Virus record (IMG/VR): IMGVR_UViG_2541047848_000002
From: a virus
Lineage: Duplodnaviria; Heunggongvirae; Uroviricota; Caudoviricetes
Reading direction: 5' to 3' (one strand)
Length of the DNA stretch: 43,934 nucleotides
This document shows positions 8,633 to 14,707 of this stretch, piece by piece. The notes under the pieces were generated by a model. That model was not told where the DNA came from. It saw only the letters and a list, made by a program, of their open reading frames with translations, and ran no database searches. The first letter of the stretch is position 1. Every line of letters begins with the position of its first letter. A program made the position numbers and the translations under genes.

Positions 8633-9562
8633 ATGGCAAACACTGCTGAGATATTCAATTTTCCAGTGCCGGATGCGGCACAAAAGGAGCTGCGCGTGGC
8701 AGATCTCGATGATGGTTATACGCGCATTGCAAATGAGTTGCTGGAAGCTGTGATGCTGGCCGGATTAACACAGCACCAGCTTCTGGTCTTCCTAGCTGTC
8801 ATGCGCAAAACATATGGCTTTAATAAAAAACTGGATTGGGTGAGCAACGAGCAACTGTCCGAATTGACCGGGATATTGCCGCACAAGTGTTCTGCTGCAA
8901 AAAGTGTTCTGGTAAAGCGTGGGATTTTGATTCAGAGCGGGCGGAATATCGGTATTAATAATGTGGTCAGTGAATGGTCAACATTACCCGAATCAGGTAA
9001 GAAAAATAAAGTTTACCTGAAAGAGGTAAATTTACCTGAATCAGGTAAGAAAAGTTTACCCAAATCAGGTAAAGGCGTTTACCCGAATCAGGTAAACACA
9101 AAAGACAAACTAACAAAAGACAATATAAAACCTTTTTCGTCCGAGAATTCTGGCGAATCCTCTGACCAACCAGAAAACGATCTTCCTGTGGTGAAACCAG
9201 ATGCTGCAATTCAGAGCGGCAGCAAGTGGGGGACAGCAGAAGACCTGACCGCCGCAGAGTGGATGTTTGACATGGTGAAGACCATCGCGCCATCAGCCAG
9301 AAAACCGAATTTTGCAGGGTGGGCTAACGATATCCGCCTGATGCGTGAACGTGACGGACGTAACCACCGCGACATGTGTGTGCTGTTCCGCTGGGCATGC
9401 CAGGACAACTTCTGGTCCGGTAACGTGCTAAGTCCGGCCAAACTCCGCGACAAGTGGACCCAACTCGAAATCAACCGTAACAAGCAACAGGCAGGCGTGA
9501 CAGCTAGCAAACCAAAACTCGACCTGACAAACACAGACTGGATTTACGGGGTGGATCTATGA
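8633..9562 (+). CDS. O: Replication initiator O (origin-binding)
   Basis: ORF 8543..9562; probable start at ATG 8633 (MANTAEIFNF...; SD GGGAGG upstream); N-terminal domain resembles lambda O (VADLDDGY..., LAVMRKTYG...) by recall; contains the iteron array internally as in lambda. Confidence 0.9.
   Translation: MANTAEIFNFPVPDAAQKELRVADLDDGYTRIANELLEAVMLAGLTQHQLLVFLAVMRKTYGFNKKLDWVSNEQLSELTGILPHKCSAAKSVLVKRGILIQSGRNIGINNVVSEWSTLPESGKKNKVYLKEVNLPESGKKSLPKSGKGVYPNQVNTKDKLTKDNIKPFSSENSGESSDQPENDLPVVKPDAAIQSGSKWGTAEDLTAAEWMFDMVKTIAPSARKPNFAGWANDIRLMRERDGRNHRDMCVLFRWACQDNFWSGNVLSPAKLRDKWTQLEINRNKQQAGVTASKPKLDLTNTDWIYGVDL
8984..9097. repeat. Origin of replication iterons inside O
   Basis: Five direct copies of about 18 bp (TTTACCyGAAwCAGGTAA) spaced about 22-23 bp, followed by an AT-rich stretch (9098-9135); the classic ori-lambda architecture. 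Confidence 0.7.
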
Positions 9563-10281
9563 AAAACATCGCCGCACAGATGATTAACTTTGACCGTGAG
9601 CAGATGCGTCGGATCGCCAACAACATGCCGGAACAGTACGACGAAAAGCCTCAGGTACAGCAGGTAGCGCAGATCATCAATGGTGTGTTCAGCCAGTTAC
9701 TGGCAACTTTCCCGGCGAGCCTGGCTAACCGTGACCAGAATGAACTGAACGAAATCCGCCGCCAGTGGGTTCTGGCTTTCCGGGAAAACGGGATCACCAC
9801 AATGGAACAGGTTAACGCTGGAATGCGCGTAGCCCGTCGGCAGAATCGACCATTTCTGCCATCACCCGGGCAGTTTGTTGCATGGTGCCGGGAAGAAGCA
9901 TCCGTTATCGCCGGACTGCCAAACGTCAGCGAGCTGGTTGATATGGTTTACGAGTATTGCCGGAAGCGAGGCCTGTATCCGGATGCGGAGTCTTATCCGT
10001 GGAAATCAAACGCGCACTACTGGCTGGTTACCAACCTGTATCAGAACATGCGGGCCAATGCGCTTACTGATGCGGAATTACGCCGTAAGGCCGCAGATGA
10101 GCTTGTCCATATGACTGCGAGAATTAACCGTGGTGAGGCGATCCCTGAACCAGTAAAACAACTTCCTGTTATGGGCGGTAGACCTCTAAATCGTGCACAG
10201 GCTCTGGCGAAGATCGCAGAAATCAAAGCTAAGTTTGGGCTGAAAGGGGGAAAAGCATTATATAAAAAGATTTCGAAATAA
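9559..10281 (+). CDS. P: Replication protein P (DnaB helicase loader)
   Basis: 240-aa ORF (MKNIAAQMINFDREQMRRIANNMPEQYDEKPQVQQVAQIING...) matching lambda P by recall; 4-nt overlap with the O stop. Confidence 0.95.
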   Translation: MKNIAAQMINFDREQMRRIANNMPEQYDEKPQVQQVAQIINGVFSQLLATFPASLANRDQNELNEIRRQWVLAFRENGITTMEQVNAGMRVARRQNRPFLPSPGQFVAWCREEASVIAGLPNVSELVDMVYEYCRKRGLYPDAESYPWKSNAHYWLVTNLYQNMRANALTDAELRRKAADELVHMTARINRGEAIPEPVKQLPVMGGRPLNRAQALAKIAEIKAKFGLKGGKALYKKISK

Positions 10282-10433: not shown

Positions 10434-11099
10434 ATGAAAATCATACAGTTACAAATGGTATTTTTTTACGATTCATCAACGACTGTCGATTTCGATGGAA
10501 TGTCGTATTTTATTAGGCAAACTTTTAAAAAGAAGGCAGGTATTGAATTAACAAACAATATGATGTTGGGCGTTTTACCTATGGATACCCCACCAGAGAT
10601 TCCTCGTCTCCAATTGTTTTCTATAGATAATAAATTTAGAGTTCAATGCTCACTGCAGAGATGTGATTTGTTTTTTGAACGTATGGATTCTGAGCAAGAG
10701 GTAGACTTACATTTGTTTCAAGAAGTTTTCGATAGTGTGGTTGATATCCATAAAGAACTCAATAAGGATATTATCAGAATAGGCTTGGTGGCCGTTAAGG
10801 CGGAATTAAACAACAACCCAAACAAAGAGATTGTTAAAAACTATCTTAGTAACAACATGCAGAATGATAGCGAAATAATTGAAGATATTAATTTAATGTA
10901 TAATAAAAAATTCGAGTTTGAGCAGTCCATATTTAATTGTCATTTGTCGATTATGTCAGGATATGATCTTGTCAGAGAACAACCAATGCTAGTGAAACAG
11001 ATCGATGTGAATACAATCGAGAGTTTTATATTTAAAGATAAATATACCGCAGAAAAAACAAAAAAAGCCTTTTTAAGTAAAGTGAATGAAATTCAGTAA
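10434..11099 (+). CDS. Hypothetical protein, first gene of an AT-rich accessory cassette
   Basis: 221-aa ORF in an about 30% GC island directly after P (lambda ren position); no recognisable domain; weak SD. Confidence 0.7.
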   Translation: MKIIQLQMVFFYDSSTTVDFDGMSYFIRQTFKKKAGIELTNNMMLGVLPMDTPPEIPRLQLFSIDNKFRVQCSLQRCDLFFERMDSEQEVDLHLFQEVFDSVVDIHKELNKDIIRIGLVAVKAELNNNPNKEIVKNYLSNNMQNDSEIIEDINLMYNKKFEFEQSIFNCHLSIMSGYDLVREQPMLVKQIDVNTIESFIFKDKYTAEKTKKAFLSKVNEIQ

Positions 11100-11113
11100 T
11101 GTGAGGTGGCTGA

Positions 11114-12073
11114 ATGAATAAGGATGATAATAAAAAGGATATAAAAAGAATTGCAAATAATAATGCTATAGTCAACGATGACATGGCAAAAAGAACTGCG
11201 CATCATTCACTTTATTCTAATTCACAAGTATCGAATAGTACATCTACGTATACAGGAGGGGTACAAAAAATTAGTAATTTGCAGATAGATAATAAAACTG
11301 CAACAGCTTCAAATAAAGAGCGGGAAAGTATATCTATCAAAGACGCGGCACCACAAAACTTAATAAAAACCTCTCTTTTTGTTAATGAAAAAGAAATGTT
11401 GCATGAAGCTATAAAATACAGTTCAAAAGCAACTGTGCCGGTGATGGATAATACTGTCTCTAATGCCATTTTATCTAATTACTTTGTTAATAATAATTCT
11501 GAATCTACAATTTCTTTTAATAAAGAGAATGTAAAAAAATATACAAAAAGTGATATTGATAACATCCTCTGGAAAAATATCAATGATCAACTAACCAATT
11601 TTTCGCAAGAGTTGAATAAGAGCAAAAAGAATATTAATGATACTAAAAGAAAAATAGGTAAGGTAATGTCTTCATTATCTCAGCAAACTGCAAAGATTGA
11701 GCAATTTGATGCAACATTATCAGATGCTGAAAAAGATATACATGAGAAAGTTAAAAGCTTTGAATCGGAAGTAATTACAGCAAGGAACTCAATGCTGGGT
11801 GTCATTGCTTTATTTGCTTCTTTCTTTACTTTCATTTCTATTTCAGTAAACGTATTTTCTCGCGATATGTCTTTAAGCATGTCAATCTCAGTTTTGTTAG
11901 TGATATGGTCGTGCTTAATTAGCTTTATCTTTGTTTTTATGGCAGGGATTAGCAAGGGAGGAGCTTTTTTTACAAGCTCATCATTTATTAAGCATGCCAT
12001 TTTTATGGTTGTGCTTTTTATTTCATCTTTCGCACTCCCTAAAGTTATTTTTAATATCTTTGCAATTAGCTGA
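11114..12073 (+). CDS. Hypothetical membrane protein with N-terminal Asn/Ser-rich coiled-coil region and C-terminal multi-helix hydrophobic domain
   Basis: 319-aa ORF 14 nt after the previous gene with strong SD GAGGTGG; the C-terminal about 100 aa contain three hydrophobic helix-like segments (LGVIALFASFFTFISISVNVF; ISVLLVIWSCLISFIFVFMAGI; AIFMVVLFISSFALPKVIF); about 30% GC. Confidence 0.75.
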   Translation: MNKDDNKKDIKRIANNNAIVNDDMAKRTAHHSLYSNSQVSNSTSTYTGGVQKISNLQIDNKTATASNKERESISIKDAAPQNLIKTSLFVNEKEMLHEAIKYSSKATVPVMDNTVSNAILSNYFVNNNSESTISFNKENVKKYTKSDIDNILWKNINDQLTNFSQELNKSKKNINDTKRKIGKVMSSLSQQTAKIEQFDATLSDAEKDIHEKVKSFESEVITARNSMLGVIALFASFFTFISISVNVFSRDMSLSMSISVLLVIWSCLISFIFVFMAGISKGGAFFTSSSFIKHAIFMVVLFISSFALPKVIFNIFAIS

Positions 12074-12157
12074 CTATCAGATGTTATCTTCAGTTGTTTA
12101 GGGTTGATTTAAAAGCGAATCTTAATATTTTCAAATTTTGAATTTAGAAATAAAAAA

Positions 12158-12300
12158 GCCATAATATTGTCATCGGAGCCTAAAAAACTCCGGTGACTTC
12201 TGCGCTAAACGGGGACGTTTATGCGCACACACAATCCAAACTCTCATCTCCATTCACAGATGCAGAAATGCACCTACGATTTTTTACATTCGGTGTTTTA
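12158..12300. repeat. Direct repeat copy 1 (about 140 bp; second copy at 14090-14235)
   Basis: Copies align by eye at roughly 88% identity with one indel (core AACTCCGGTGACTTCTGCGCTAAACGGGGACGTTTATGCGCAC...CCATTCACAGATGCAGAAATGCACCT). Confidence 0.7.
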
Positions 12301-12704
12301 CTTCGACAGCCAGAATTGGGAGTCTCTATTCGTCTGGCGGCTAAAGGTGATATGGAAATCGTTATGTTTTGGCCTGAGGTAGTTGTAACTGTTGTAGCAA
12401 CTATGGCTGTGATCATCATGGTGTCCATTTACTGGGGTTGACGACATGATTTATCCGGCGCTATATTCTGTGCGTTGCCGCAAAATCGGCACACGGGATT
12501 GGCGTCCCGGGATACTACTCAACGCATACCGCGTTAAGCGGTTTTTTTGTGCGCTAAGCACGGCTATGCCCAAATTATGGTGGGCTGTGTGAGGGCTTCT
12601 TCGGAAGCGCCGGGTTTGAGTAGCCGGTTACGCCAACCTTACACAGTTCACCACCAGTCGATTGGCGTCGTTGGTGGTGATGGTTAACCTGATGAGGTGA
12701 TACT

Positions 12705-13313
12705 ATGACTACTCAATTAGCATTCCACAAAACGACGTTTACCCCGATTTGCCACAATAACAGAATTTGGCTTACTGCCACTGAAGTTGGTTTAGCACTG
12801 GAATATGCGGACGATAAAGCAGTTCAGCGCATTTACTCTCGGCACTCAGATGAATTCACAGATATGATGACAAGGGTGGTCAAAGTGACCACCCCTCGTG
12901 GAATGCAGGAGTCTCGAGTATTTAGCCTTCGCGGAGCCCATTTGATCGCCATGTTTGCTCGTACTCCTGTGGCCAAAGAATTCCGCCGCTGGGTTCTGGA
13001 TATTCTCGATCGAGAAGTTCAACAATCCCCAATCACAAAACAATTCACTGATAACGAACTTTGCACACTCGCCTGGTTATGGCGAGCAAGTGATACGATG
13101 TTAACCGCCTGCCAGAACGTTACGCCCCTTCTTCAGGTCGCAGAGCATCGCGAAGCAGGTAGATTCACTTCAATCGAACAAGAATATCCTCGGATACTCA
13201 ACAGGGCGCGAGAAATCCTTGCCAGAGAAACGGCGCATGTAAAATTCCAACCGTGGCAGGATGATAAGTGGAGTCGTGTGTTACCATATTTCCGTCAGAA
13301 TCTGTTGCAATAA
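12705..13313 (+). CDS. Bro-N domain protein (putative antirepressor-like regulator)
   Basis: 202-aa ORF with SD GAGGTGA; N-terminal region (FTPICHNNRIWLTATEVGLALEYADDKAVQRIY) resembles the Bro-N/antirepressor N-terminal domain. Confidence 0.7.
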   Translation: MTTQLAFHKTTFTPICHNNRIWLTATEVGLALEYADDKAVQRIYSRHSDEFTDMMTRVVKVTTPRGMQESRVFSLRGAHLIAMFARTPVAKEFRRWVLDILDREVQQSPITKQFTDNELCTLAWLWRASDTMLTACQNVTPLLQVAEHREAGRFTSIEQEYPRILNRAREILARETAHVKFQPWQDDKWSRVLPYFRQNLLQ

Positions 13314-13331
13314 AGTCACTAGTTAGAAATA

Positions 13332-13371
13332 CTGCCAGCATTCTGCGATGACGGAAGTGCTGGCATTTTTT
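13332..13371 (+). terminator. Rho-independent terminator after the Bro-N gene
   Basis: Stem TGCCAGCA / TGCTGGCA (13332-13339 / 13357-13364) followed by TTTTTTT (13365-13371). Confidence 0.6.
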
Positions 13372-13547
13372 TGGTAATGTGCGAGTCCATTTCATAAAAT
13401 ACGGGTACTGGAACTGGACGATATAATCTAAAAGATACCATTATCAGTAGCATTAAAATCGCTATGTGCCGATACGGATATAAGTTATATTGATTGTTCA
13501 CATACCTTATTGGATATTACTGAGGGGTGTTTATATAAGGTGTAACG

Positions 13548-14057
13548 ATGATGTGGAACTTTGACAGTGCCGACTTAAGTGCAATAGCAGCAGGCATTTC
13601 TGCGTTTGGCACATTAGCCGCAGCGGGGTCGGCGCTTGCAAGTTGGTACACGTCAAAAAAAGCGCTGCAGCTACAAAATAGAGTTTACCTTTATGAGTCT
13701 TTAAAGGCTTGCGCTGAGAGAGCCAATTCATCAGCTAAAGATAAGCGCGGATCTGAATGGAGCGTTAATGATGCAGCGGATATCATCAGGTGCCTAGTAC
13801 GGGCGATGGAGATCATCAAGCAGGATAGCCAGCAGAAAGAAGGTAATCAGGCATTAATGTTGAAACAGTACTTTGTTAATCTGCTAATAATGGAACTGTA
13901 CGAGGAAGTTCATAACGGTGATGCGGCTGATTCTGTTTTTAAAAGGACGGAACCTACACAAGTACTTGATAACTTATGGGGCAAATGGCAGGAGGCTATA
14001 GCTTTTTTTGATATTTGGAATTACCCAGTTGCGACTGAGGAAGACTTGGCAGACTAA
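13548..14057 (+). CDS. Hypothetical protein with N-terminal hydrophobic (Ala/Gly-rich) segment
   Basis: 169-aa ORF (MMWNFDSADLSAIAAGISAFGTLAAAGSALASWY...) preceded by an AT-rich region; no domain recognised. Confidence 0.6.
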   Translation: MMWNFDSADLSAIAAGISAFGTLAAAGSALASWYTSKKALQLQNRVYLYESLKACAERANSSAKDKRGSEWSVNDAADIIRCLVRAMEIIKQDSQQKEGNQALMLKQYFVNLLIMELYEEVHNGDAADSVFKRTEPTQVLDNLWGKWQEAIAFFDIWNYPVATEEDLAD

Positions 14058-14089
14058 TTTTCAGCACATTTGATTTCCAATAATCAACC

Positions 14090-14235
14090 AGCCATAATCA
14101 TGCCATTGGAGCCTGAACAACTCCGGTGACTTCTGCGCTAAACGGGGACGTTTATGCGCACATACAATCCAACCTATCTTCTCCATTCACAGATGCAGAA
14201 ATGCACCTGCGATTTTTTGCATCCAGCGTTTGGCC
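14090..14235. repeat. Direct repeat copy 2 (partner of 12158-12300), immediately upstream of the NinB/YbcN-like gene
   Basis: See copy 1; this copy runs into the SD (GGAGG) and GTG start of the ORF at 14252. Confidence 0.7.
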
Positions 14236-14251
14236 TCTGCGGAGGTGAAGC

Positions 14252-14707
14252 GTGAACCTCCCACAAGATGGCATCAAATTACATCGCGGTAACTTCACCG
14301 CTATCGGTCGGCAGATCCAGCCTTATCTGGAGGAGGGCAAATGCTTTCGCATGGTGCTTAAACCGTGGCGTGAGAAACGCAGTCTTTCCCAGAATGCACT
14401 CAGCCACATGTGGTACAGCGAAATCAGTGAATACCTCATCAACAGGGGTAAAACGTTCGCCACTCCAGCTTGGGTAAAAGATGCTCTCAAACACACATAT
14501 CTCGGTTATGAAACCAAAGACCTGGTTGATGTCGTAACCGGTGATATCACCACTATCCAGTCGTTACGCCATACCTCCGATCTTGATACCGGAGAGATGT
14601 ATGTCTTCCTGTGTAAGGTTGAAGCCTGGGCGGTGAATATTGGCTGCCACCTGACTATTCCGCAGAGCTGCGAGTTCCAGCTGCTCCGTGACAAGCAGGA
14701 GGCGTAA
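14252..14707 (+). CDS. NinB/Orf-family recombination protein (YbcN-like)
   Basis: 151-aa ORF with GTG start and SD GGAGG; motif [13 protein letters not shown] resembles the NinB RSLDQN...W motif; first gene of a DLP12-like nin block. Confidence 0.7.

Follow-up and report, generated by a model that had tools for sequence, protein, structure and literature searches.

Why does a lambdoid prophage carry two copies of the same sequence, one ahead of ybcN, a gene of the NinB/Orf family, and another further upstream, with accessory genes in between? This question is raised by the virus record IMGVR_UViG_2541047848_000002, a stretch of 43,934 nucleotides, hereafter the window, which is a DLP12/phage-82-like lambdoid prophage of Escherichia coli. 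A sequence-only reading had taken the repeat for a duplicated gene-front or a recombination linker, used to splice in a single 1.8-kb insertion. Comparison of its copies across phages and prophages indicates that the repeat is a conserved functional unit, which we call the nin leader, and not a passive linker. The unit contains a sigma-70 promoter motif, three covarying hairpins (HP1 to HP3) and the first two thirds of an upstream open reading frame (uORF) of 31-33 codons, known as ylcH or orf33. The nin leader is a previously undescribed, widespread promoter and structured-RNA element whose usual place is at the head of the ninB-to-Q operon in lambdoid prophages. In the window it occurs twice, namely, as copy B, ahead of ybcN, and as copy A, ahead of an antirepressor module.

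The repeat as a conserved leader

A repeat search of the window placed the two copies at 12149-12298 and 14082-14231, that is, 150 nt that align ungapped at a constant offset of 1933, with 88% identity and 18 differences (E = 4e-51 in local blastn). The similarity is thus neither shorter nor weaker than had been read by eye. Of the earlier description, copies of about 140 bp that are some 88% identical and differ by one indel, the identity and, within a few bases, the coordinates hold, but the core needs no indel. The sole indel lies in a weaker part that includes the promoter-like motif, through which gapped alignment extends the similarity leftwards to around 12132 and 14066. On the right, the similarity fades at about 12300-12306 and 14233-14239. 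The second copy had been credited with supplying the Shine-Dalgarno (SD) sequence and start of the NinB-like gene; both lie just outside the repeated part (Table 1).

Besides phage 82, Citrobacter and the DLP12 prophage of K-12 (as ylcH-ybcN), the leader is present in phi80, HK639 and HK225, in Enterobacter and Klebsiella phages and in 24 species-representative genomes from nine genera, and it was over these latter copies, from phi80 onwards, that its anatomy was compared. They share a promoter motif, TTGATW-N17-CATAAT, followed by HP1, HP2, a variable spacer and HP3, whose loop is GAAA. Of 54 distinct copies, 53 have a promoter motif that scores 9 or more at a constant position, as against 13% of shuffles, and in some copies an extended -10 (TGTTATAAT) takes the place of the usual motif. 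HP1 is the 5'-terminal hairpin and combines a highly variable stem with a conserved loop, nYUGARCAm. In HP2, the loop exposes an SD-like GGGGA and the 3' arm contains the uORF AUG, while HP3 lies inside the uORF.

The evidence for structure comes from how the stems vary around their loops. A plain MAFFT alignment with RNAalifold recovered HP3 only, with the variable stems misaligned, and this was resolved by loop-anchored counts and by a covariance model built from a gap-free seed. In the independent loop-anchored counts, HP1 has more than 20 stem versions around the fixed loop, and HP2 has at least nine around an invariant GGGA loop. In the model-fitted alignment, nine of ten HP1 pairs and 10 of 11 HP2 pairs covary, 97.2% of the alignment cells are paired, versus 25-39% with slid partners, and both sides change in 22 of the 30 base pairs; none of 500 shuffles reaches any of these measures. 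Every copy scores between 55 and 167 bits with the covariance model (copy B, 159 bits with model R1; phage 82, 165 bits), and a scan of lambda with this model found no copy of the element. G-U pairs occur only on the + strand, which argues that the structure belongs to this, the transcribed, strand.

No Rfam family matched the leader within 12132-12300 or 14066-14255, either at gathering thresholds or at E values up to 5, and no description of it was found in the searchable literature, including searches on ylcH and ybcN. The published small RNAs (sRNAs) svsR and PasA-D were considered as identities for the leader and discarded, as they map elsewhere in prophages.

Two observations were made on individual parts of the leader. 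A palindrome, TTGATW-N6-WATCAA, covers the -35 box (14070-14087 in the window) and is kept across genera in most homologues; it may be an operator for a dimeric regulator. A reading of this palindrome as an FNR-like site was rejected, its half-sites being 8 nt and not 4 nt apart, and its similarity to Fur sites is loose. In addition, Enterobacter sp. BIGb0383 (NZ_RJKQ01000002.1; collected locus L226, 5503-5534) carries a type I-E CRISPR spacer, TTGTCACAGATGCAGAAATGCACCTGCGATTT, that is identical to the HP3 segment, so that a host CRISPR system targets the conserved phage leader.

The uORF, ybcN and promoter activity

Ahead of a NinB-family gene, each distinct copy keeps the orf33/ylcH frame open, with lengths of 31-50 codons, mostly 31-33, and in each such copy the frame ends in ATGA or GTGA, overlapping the start of that gene. 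A fourth hairpin, HP4, lies outside the repeat and within the 3' end of the uORF. It appears in the minimum free energy (MFE) fold of nearly all of 46 non-redundant leaders folded through the ninB start, and it occurs as three compensated stem types, all of which sequester the SD. The simplest mechanism would be translational coupling from the uORF to ybcN: ribosomes translating the uORF would melt HP4 and then hand over to ybcN, and without such translation the first gene of the nin-Q operon would stay closed. In a Klebsiella phage, compensatory changes in HP3 turn the uORF peptide QMQKCTC into PMAKATG, which suggests that, at least in this variant, structure is selected over peptide sequence.

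Two further candidates in this region were discarded. An anti-SD role of the CUCC/CACC motif in the variable spacer, directed against the ninB SD, was not supported by folding, which gave the local hairpin HP4 instead. The frame that opens with GTG at 12193 and 14126 looked synonymous-biased between copies A and B, but it offers too few sites for a judgement and has no usable SD.

Support for the promoter comes from the prophage Gifsy-1, whose version of the leader consists of TTGACT-N18-CATAAT (36668-36639) and then ACTGG-CCUGAACAA-CCAGU, with an identical HP1 loop; STM2620 is the first gene of the operon behind it. A start about 7 nt past the -10 box would lie some 1,607 nt upstream of the antQ AUG, and antQ's transcription start site has been mapped "1,600 bases upstream" of antQ (PMC4825925). 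The agreement between the predicted and the mapped start means that the leader promoter is experimentally supported by homology; in E. coli, too, it may be active. The Gifsy-1 version (L242, 36614-36668, - strand) has no uORF; it has an HP2-like hairpin with an SD in its loop and the STM2620 AUG in its 3' arm.

Two expression records touch on the same promoter. In a K-12 transcriptome table, ylcH RNA (ylcH of DLP12, L241, 3588-3689) is 2.03-fold up in microaerobic versus aerobic growth (PMC8910356), and a Gifsy-1 locus, STMMW_26411, of uncertain identity, is reported to be anaerobically induced (PMC7067206). These records may suggest that the leader promoter is controlled by oxygen.

Copy A, its module and the variable slot

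The claim of a duplicated gene-front was borne out: copy A comprises a promoter motif, a 5' leader and the initial ~27 uORF codons, and ends where HP4 would start. The exact 53-aa product of its extended uORF is on record solely as 'hypothetical protein'. Copy A always heads one and the same module, which consists of a small membrane ORF, isrK, a C4 antisense RNA and a Bro-N/P22AR_C antirepressor. The interval content described before, namely, a Bro-N gene, a strong terminator and a 169-aa ORF with a hydrophobic N-terminus, is all present, and the small membrane ORF, the promoter-like site at 12438-12467, isrK and the C4 RNA had been overlooked.

The small membrane ORF matches phrog_4612 (E = 4e-42), has a hydrophobic C-terminus and ends in a stop that overlaps the -35 box of the isrK promoter, PisrK. 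Its frame stays open in the divergent loci of phage IdasGreatGrand and L148, with in-frame indels of 3 and 6 nt. The 57-aa version, from the AUG at 12268, is in the frame of the rejected GTG at 12193 and 14126, and PHROGs support it in upstream copies only. Copy A may have a function for this small ORF.

Judged by homology, the interval holds an antirepressor module of the design known from P1 immI and Gifsy-1 isrK. The isrK RNA has a predicted intrinsic terminator at 12528-12548 and is overlapped by a match to RF03163, c4-a1b1, of 39.6 bits, below the gathering threshold (GA) of 46.7. The C4 RNA displays two loops, UUGAGUAG (12616-12623) and ACGCCAA (12630-12636). The latter is exactly complementary to UUGGCGU at 12499-12505 and again at 12662-12668, and the former is exactly complementary to CUACUCAA at 12515-12522 and at 12709-12716. 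The regulated gene at 12705, whose product RefSeq names 'P22AR C-terminal domain-containing protein', is by homology an antirepressor. Its N-terminus, MTTQ (12705-12716), is common to Gifsy-1 anrP (L242, 34076 downward), to which it is otherwise unrelated; the shared residues are explained by codons 2-4 being the b2 target of the C4 RNA. The junction between RNA control unit and protein gene falls directly after the MTTQ-coding b2 target, and the same RNA layout ahead of otherwise unalignable antirepressors means that the control unit is shared and the protein swapped. The module shows P1-type C4 cassettes to be portable regulatory units, joined to unrelated antirepressors right after the target in codons 2-4.

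Beyond this module the two-copy loci part ways. They share the sequence from copy A to the terminator (~12132-13350), their homology ending at about 13345-13351, and they differ over ~13350-14065. What had been described as a single 1.8-kb insertion is a conserved module (~12132-13372) followed by a variable slot, and not one unit. In the window, the slot holds the 169-aa protein, whose family is narrow, with 15 clusters returned by a protein search, and which has no match in Pfam, PADLOC or PDB. Its AlphaFold2 model, with a pLDDT (predicted local distance difference test) score of 69, is all-helical with a disordered and hydrophobic N-terminus, and Foldseek gave no significant fold match against PDB and BFVD. 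In three collected loci (L103, L141 and L185), the slot encodes a 138-aa HEPN-domain protein overlapping a 133-aa partner (~3722-4518 in L103); the HEPN protein, so named in RefSeq, has a weak PADLOC match to the candidate defence family PDC-M28A (E = 1.8e-7), and the two look like a toxin-antitoxin or defence pair. IdasGreatGrand and strain L9 have a 118-aa ORF at this place, and L148 has another filling. A further two-copy locus, L104 (10543-10675 and 12951-13082, - strand), has a spacing of about 2408 nt, which points to another slot filling. Genes of an accessory, possibly defensive, kind recur in the slot beside the module, and since this slot holds the HEPN pair elsewhere, it is tempting to speculate that the 169-aa protein has an accessory or defence role.

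As to distribution, 218 leader core copies were found in the collected loci: 192 ahead of ybcN, four ahead of other NinB-family alleles and 20 ahead of the small-ORF/isrK module. The repeat is a conserved leader of ninB-family genes, and since it precedes three different NinB-family alleles, it is more conserved than the gene behind it. A query with the region matched, at least in part, 3017 of 5426 complete E. coli genomes, K-12 included, and most of the partial matches sampled are a single leader with the ybcN start. The window-like arrangement, defined by a match to at least 80% of 12100-14300, is found in 112 of these 5426 genomes, and two copies also occur in phages PhiR26_1 and IdasGreatGrand and in about 15 viral contigs. 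The presence of both copies in one genome is thus fairly common, whereas it had been called uncommon.

How copy A arose can be read in part from its borders. The right junction of the upstream copy is identical in all loci. To its left, the alleles at diagnostic sites change from copy-A-type to ninB-proximal-type, and the point of change differs among loci. A fixed right junction with a mosaic left part implies crossovers inside the leader, and suggests that a single ancestral fusion was followed by recurrent homologous exchange within it. In such a scenario, the leader would have been fused once, at about 12300, where HP4 would begin, to the accessory module, giving rise to copy A; homologous recombination, crossing over at various points within the leader, would then have distributed the module among DLP12/82-like prophages. 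The duplication itself is ordinary lambdoid phage mosaicism.

As to whether relatives have or lack the cassette exactly at the repeat boundaries, no isogenic empty site was found; the left flank is present in 21 genomes, of which three were inspected, each with the module. Cassette parts do occur away from the repeat pair, which the earlier reading would have counted against itself, although in each case only in part. One locus, L039, carries isrK, C4 and Bro without an upstream copy and shares the window sequence only from about PisrK on, and PhiR5_1, L052, L073, L085, L018 and L037 have the 169-aa gene with the downstream copy only, behind a Rha-type antirepressor.

Several apparent deviations were resolved by alignment. 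Upstream copies that appeared as 5'-truncated in BLAST are complete copies with a different promoter/HP1 allele. Phages of the 4A7 type, initially read as having two copies around an esterase gene, have in local BLAST one copy and a remnant of a P22AR_C gene. This remnant, 77% identical, lies between ybcK-like recombinase and esterase genes in phages 4A7 (L002, 2501-2654), D2, 1W, 3W and Perceval, where the antirepressor module seems to have been once present and then partly replaced. An enterobacterial leader and ninB start were also found in L219 (NZ_JAVHZE010000050.1), a scaffold of 1115 bp from an actinobacterial assembly labelled Kocuria sabuli; this is probably assembly contamination.

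The positions of all features are collected in Table 1. The gene order of the window is P (9559-10281), two AT-rich ORFs, the repeat region, ybcN-ninE-ybcO-rusA-ylcG-Q and a porin gene, and no tRNA genes were found in the window. The two AT-rich ORFs (10434-12073) have a GC content of 28-35%, versus about 50% around them, and lie where relatives have ren. Their matches are phrog_24110 and phrog_25335, neither with an assigned function, and the second ORF is hydrophobic in segments of its C-terminus. A portion of this second ORF (11300-12130) is present in only 21 of the 5426 complete E. coli genomes.

Table 1. Features of the two leader copies and of the interval between them, in window coordinates.
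Feature	Position	Strand	Remarks
Copy A promoter-like motif	12138..12165	+	TTGAAT, 16 nt, CATAAT; promoter scan 9/12; position of the conserved motif
Copy A HP1	12169..12197	+	10-bp stem, loop CCUAAAAAA, deviating from nYUGARCAm; MFE fold
Copy A HP2	12201..12227	+	11 bp and one bulge, GGGA loop; uORF AUG 12221 in 3' arm
Copy A uORF, ylcH frame	12221..12382	+	53 codons; continues into unrelated sequence, overlaps the AUG at 12353
Copy A HP3	12254..12279	+	GAAA loop; one C-A mismatch from G to A at 12276; RNAalifold
Small membrane protein ORF	12268..12441	+	57 aa (AUG 12268) or 29 aa (AUG 12353, AAGGUGAU SD)
PisrK promoter-like site	12438..12467	+	TTGACG, 18 nt, TATATT; promoter scan 10/12
isrK sRNA	12476..12548	+	Rfam RF01394, 58.7 bits vs GA 50; a1 12499-12505, b1 12515-12522
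C4-type antisense RNA	12573..12658	+	Rfam RF01695, 74.8 bits vs GA 45
Small uORF overlapping C4	12577..12687	+	36 aa; counterpart of Gifsy-1 orf45; stop 17 nt ahead of antirepressor start
Downstream C4 target a2	12662..12668	+	
Antirepressor-like gene	12705..13313	+	202 aa; Pfam PF02498 Bro-N and PF10548 P22_AR_C; PHROG anti-repressor Ant families
Downstream C4 target b2	12709..12716	+	antirepressor codons 2-4
Intrinsic terminator closing the module	13333..13372	+	fold of -22.3 kcal/mol, then U7
Variable-slot gene	13548..14057	+	169 aa; hydrophobic N-terminus; phrog_1779 (unknown function)
Copy B promoter-like motif	14070..14098	+	TTGATT, 17 nt, CATAAT; -35 inside palindrome TTGATT-N6-AATCAA
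Copy B HP1	14102..14130	+	covariance model, pair counts, MFE fold
Copy B HP2	14134..14160	+	covariance model, pair counts, MFE fold
uORF ylcH/orf33	14154..14255	+	33 aa; stop overlaps ybcN GTG (GTGA); annotated in phage 82, K-12, RefSeq
Copy B HP3	14187..14212	+	covariance model, pair counts, MFE fold
HP4, outside the repeat	14226..14253	+	hides ybcN SD (14241-14246) and start codon; MFE folds
ybcN (NinB/Orf family)	14252..14707	+	first gene of the ybcN-ninE-ybcO-rusA-ylcG-Q operon

Alternative explanations and known systems

We consider it probable that these parts belong together, that is, that the repeat is a functional leader coupled to the gene behind it, that copy A arose by one fusion of this leader to the antirepressor module and that the latter spread by recombination. 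Several observations weigh against this account. The alignment from which the pair counts were taken was fitted to the covariance model and is, as a result, biased toward structure; the covariation of HP3 depends largely on a single Klebsiella sequence, and the search pattern used accounts in part for the invariance of the HP3 segment. Expression of rusA in DLP12 is reportedly adequate only with promoter-creating insertions (PMC4118853), which implies that the leader promoter gives little downstream expression in a K-12 lysogen. Weakness or repression of this promoter, or attenuation of the operon, may account for this. Copy A of the window has a mutated HP1 loop and an HP3 mismatch, and the upstream copy of IdasGreatGrand has lost its uORF AUG (ATA), so that upstream copies may be decaying instead of functional. 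Lastly, the single-origin scenario has the shared right junction as its sole basis.

The alternatives have to explain the same features. If the repeat were a passive recombination linker, it would be some 150 bp of shared homology at a module boundary, with no function of its own, through which the cassette was spliced. Crossovers inside the element, the very variable content upstream of this boundary and the direct repeats themselves, which are the expected leftover of unequal homologous exchange, all agree with such a linker. However, compensatory changes preserve the hairpins across nine genera, the position of the promoter motif does not change, even where the alternative extended -10 is used, and the uORF is open and overlaps the next start. 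The covariation largely refutes a linker without function, which we regard as distinctly unlikely; of the linker claimed from the sequence, the crossovers inside the element stand, whereas covariation, the fixed promoter motif and the open uORF speak against it. The frame that is open ahead of every NinB-family gene, a 12-residue peptide segment that is highly conserved and the coding sequences annotated in phage 82, K-12 and RefSeq could also mean that ylcH/orf33 is the conserved unit, a small-protein gene of which copy A is a truncated paralogue, with the peptide conserved and not the RNA. This we hold to be highly unlikely, as HP1 and the 5' arm of HP2 are upstream of the ORF and yet covary, and most differences in its N-terminal half, both between copies A and B and between phages, are non-synonymous. 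Moreover, the Klebsiella variant alters four of the seven residues of QMQKCTC with HP3 pairing kept, in Gifsy-1 a promoter, HP1 and an HP2-like hairpin persist without a uORF, and the upstream copy of IdasGreatGrand does without the AUG.

Two further explanations concern the borders of the interval. There is a very slim chance that the copies are duplicated tR2-like terminators, insulating the accessory genes from the nin-Q operon. A scan flags a hairpin followed by T6 in copy B (14194-14211), and lambda tR2 occupies the same map position, between ren and ninB, but the stem has just 5 bp and the scan flags none in copy A. In most homologues the T-run is interrupted, reading UUUUCUGC, and pairs in an alternative long HP3; the region has four terminator-like sites versus 3.9 in shuffles, and lambda lacks the element altogether. 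That the copies are the ends of a site-specific mobile cassette, of the att, attC or transposon type, which moves the 1.8-kb segment as a unit, seems barely conceivable. Direct repeats do bracket accessory genes, and a recombinase gene, ybcK, is nearby in DLP12-type relatives; yet no recombinase or transposase gene is found within or beside the interval here, one of the copies is in every case the ybcN leader in its native place, the cassette does not hold together as one unit, and crossovers are spread along the element with no single core site.

A wider reading, according to which the leader is an RNA switch regulated in trans, with a factor that gates the nin-Q operon in lysogens, we think unlikely. 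The HP1 loop CUGARCA at the transcript 5' end, the GGGA loop of HP2 and the -35 palindrome would then be recognition sites for a phage or host factor. If so, the second copy would put prophage induction, through the antirepressor, and late-gene licensing, through Q, under one signal, and the leader would represent a class of phage regulatory RNA that is new and is carried by about half of E. coli genomes, K-12 included. On the preferred account, of a functional leader with a coupled uORF, what matters is that a covarying leader of four hairpins heads an operon that ends in the late-gene antiterminator Q. Should the leader limit ninB-Q expression in lysogens, this would help to explain a silent Q beside transcribed accessory genes, in cryptic as well as active prophages, and the dependence of rusA in DLP12 on promoter-creating insertions could have the same explanation. 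The content of the repeat, a leader RNA, matters more than its duplication, and deserves description as a family.

When compared with known systems, the interval and the leader resemble different ones. The module layout matches the a1b1-c4-a2b2-ant logic of P1/P7 immI, with a C4-family RNA whose two loops are each complementary to upstream a1/b1 and downstream a2/b2 targets, and with the downstream target pair at the translation start region of the antirepressor operon. Unlike in P1/P7, the module is here located between replication genes and ninB of a lambdoid prophage, a terminated sRNA, isrK, carries the upstream targets, a 36-aa uORF takes the place of icd, and the antirepressor is a Bro-N/P22AR_C protein.

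The isrK-orf45-anrP-isrJ locus of Gifsy-1 is similar in that isrK, overlapping c4-a1b1, is followed by C4 (STnc1160/orf45) and then by the antirepressor, and in that a predicted isrK promoter (10/12) and terminator are also present here. A scan of Gifsy-1 for RNA families returned this order, namely, isrK/c4-a1b1, C4 and isrJ, the last of these with 100 bits; in the window, isrJ had no match even at E values up to 5. According to the mechanism published for Gifsy-1 (Hershko-Shalev et al. 2016, PMC4825925), a uORF to which the antirepressor AnrP is coupled is switched on in its translation by short IsrK; AnrP then brings about prophage induction and an increase in antQ operon transcripts. AnrP, however, is of a different family and aligns with the window protein only over residues 1-59 (BLASTP, 37% identity, E = 0.003). 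Moreover, the Gifsy-1 locus is downstream of Q, whereas the module described here lies ahead of ninB, with a leader copy and the small membrane ORF in front of it.

The leader itself is the same element as the orf33 (ylcH) region directly ahead of orf151 (ybcN) in phage 82 and DLP12 (GenBank X92588), where it is found in a single copy. That record annotates a putative -35/-10 (the same boxes as in copy B), a 'possible regulator-binding site' that corresponds to HP1, a ribosome-binding site that corresponds to the HP2 GGGGA loop, and orf33; it was annotated from one sequence, without RNA structure, covariation or coupling. The arrangement as a whole resembles the boundaries or linkers of lambdoid mosaics, in that a short conserved sequence is located at the junction of exchangeable modules with crossovers inside it, and it resembles morons, in that accessory genes with their own promoter and terminator are placed between early genes. 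Unlike passive boundary linkers, the leader is under selection as a promoter and structured RNA. With coupled-uORF systems, such as orf45-anrP (PMC4825925), it shares the stop-start overlap and a downstream SD in a hairpin within the uORF, which is predicted here, and it differs from the known ones in having, in addition, HP1 and HP2 with their invariant loops.

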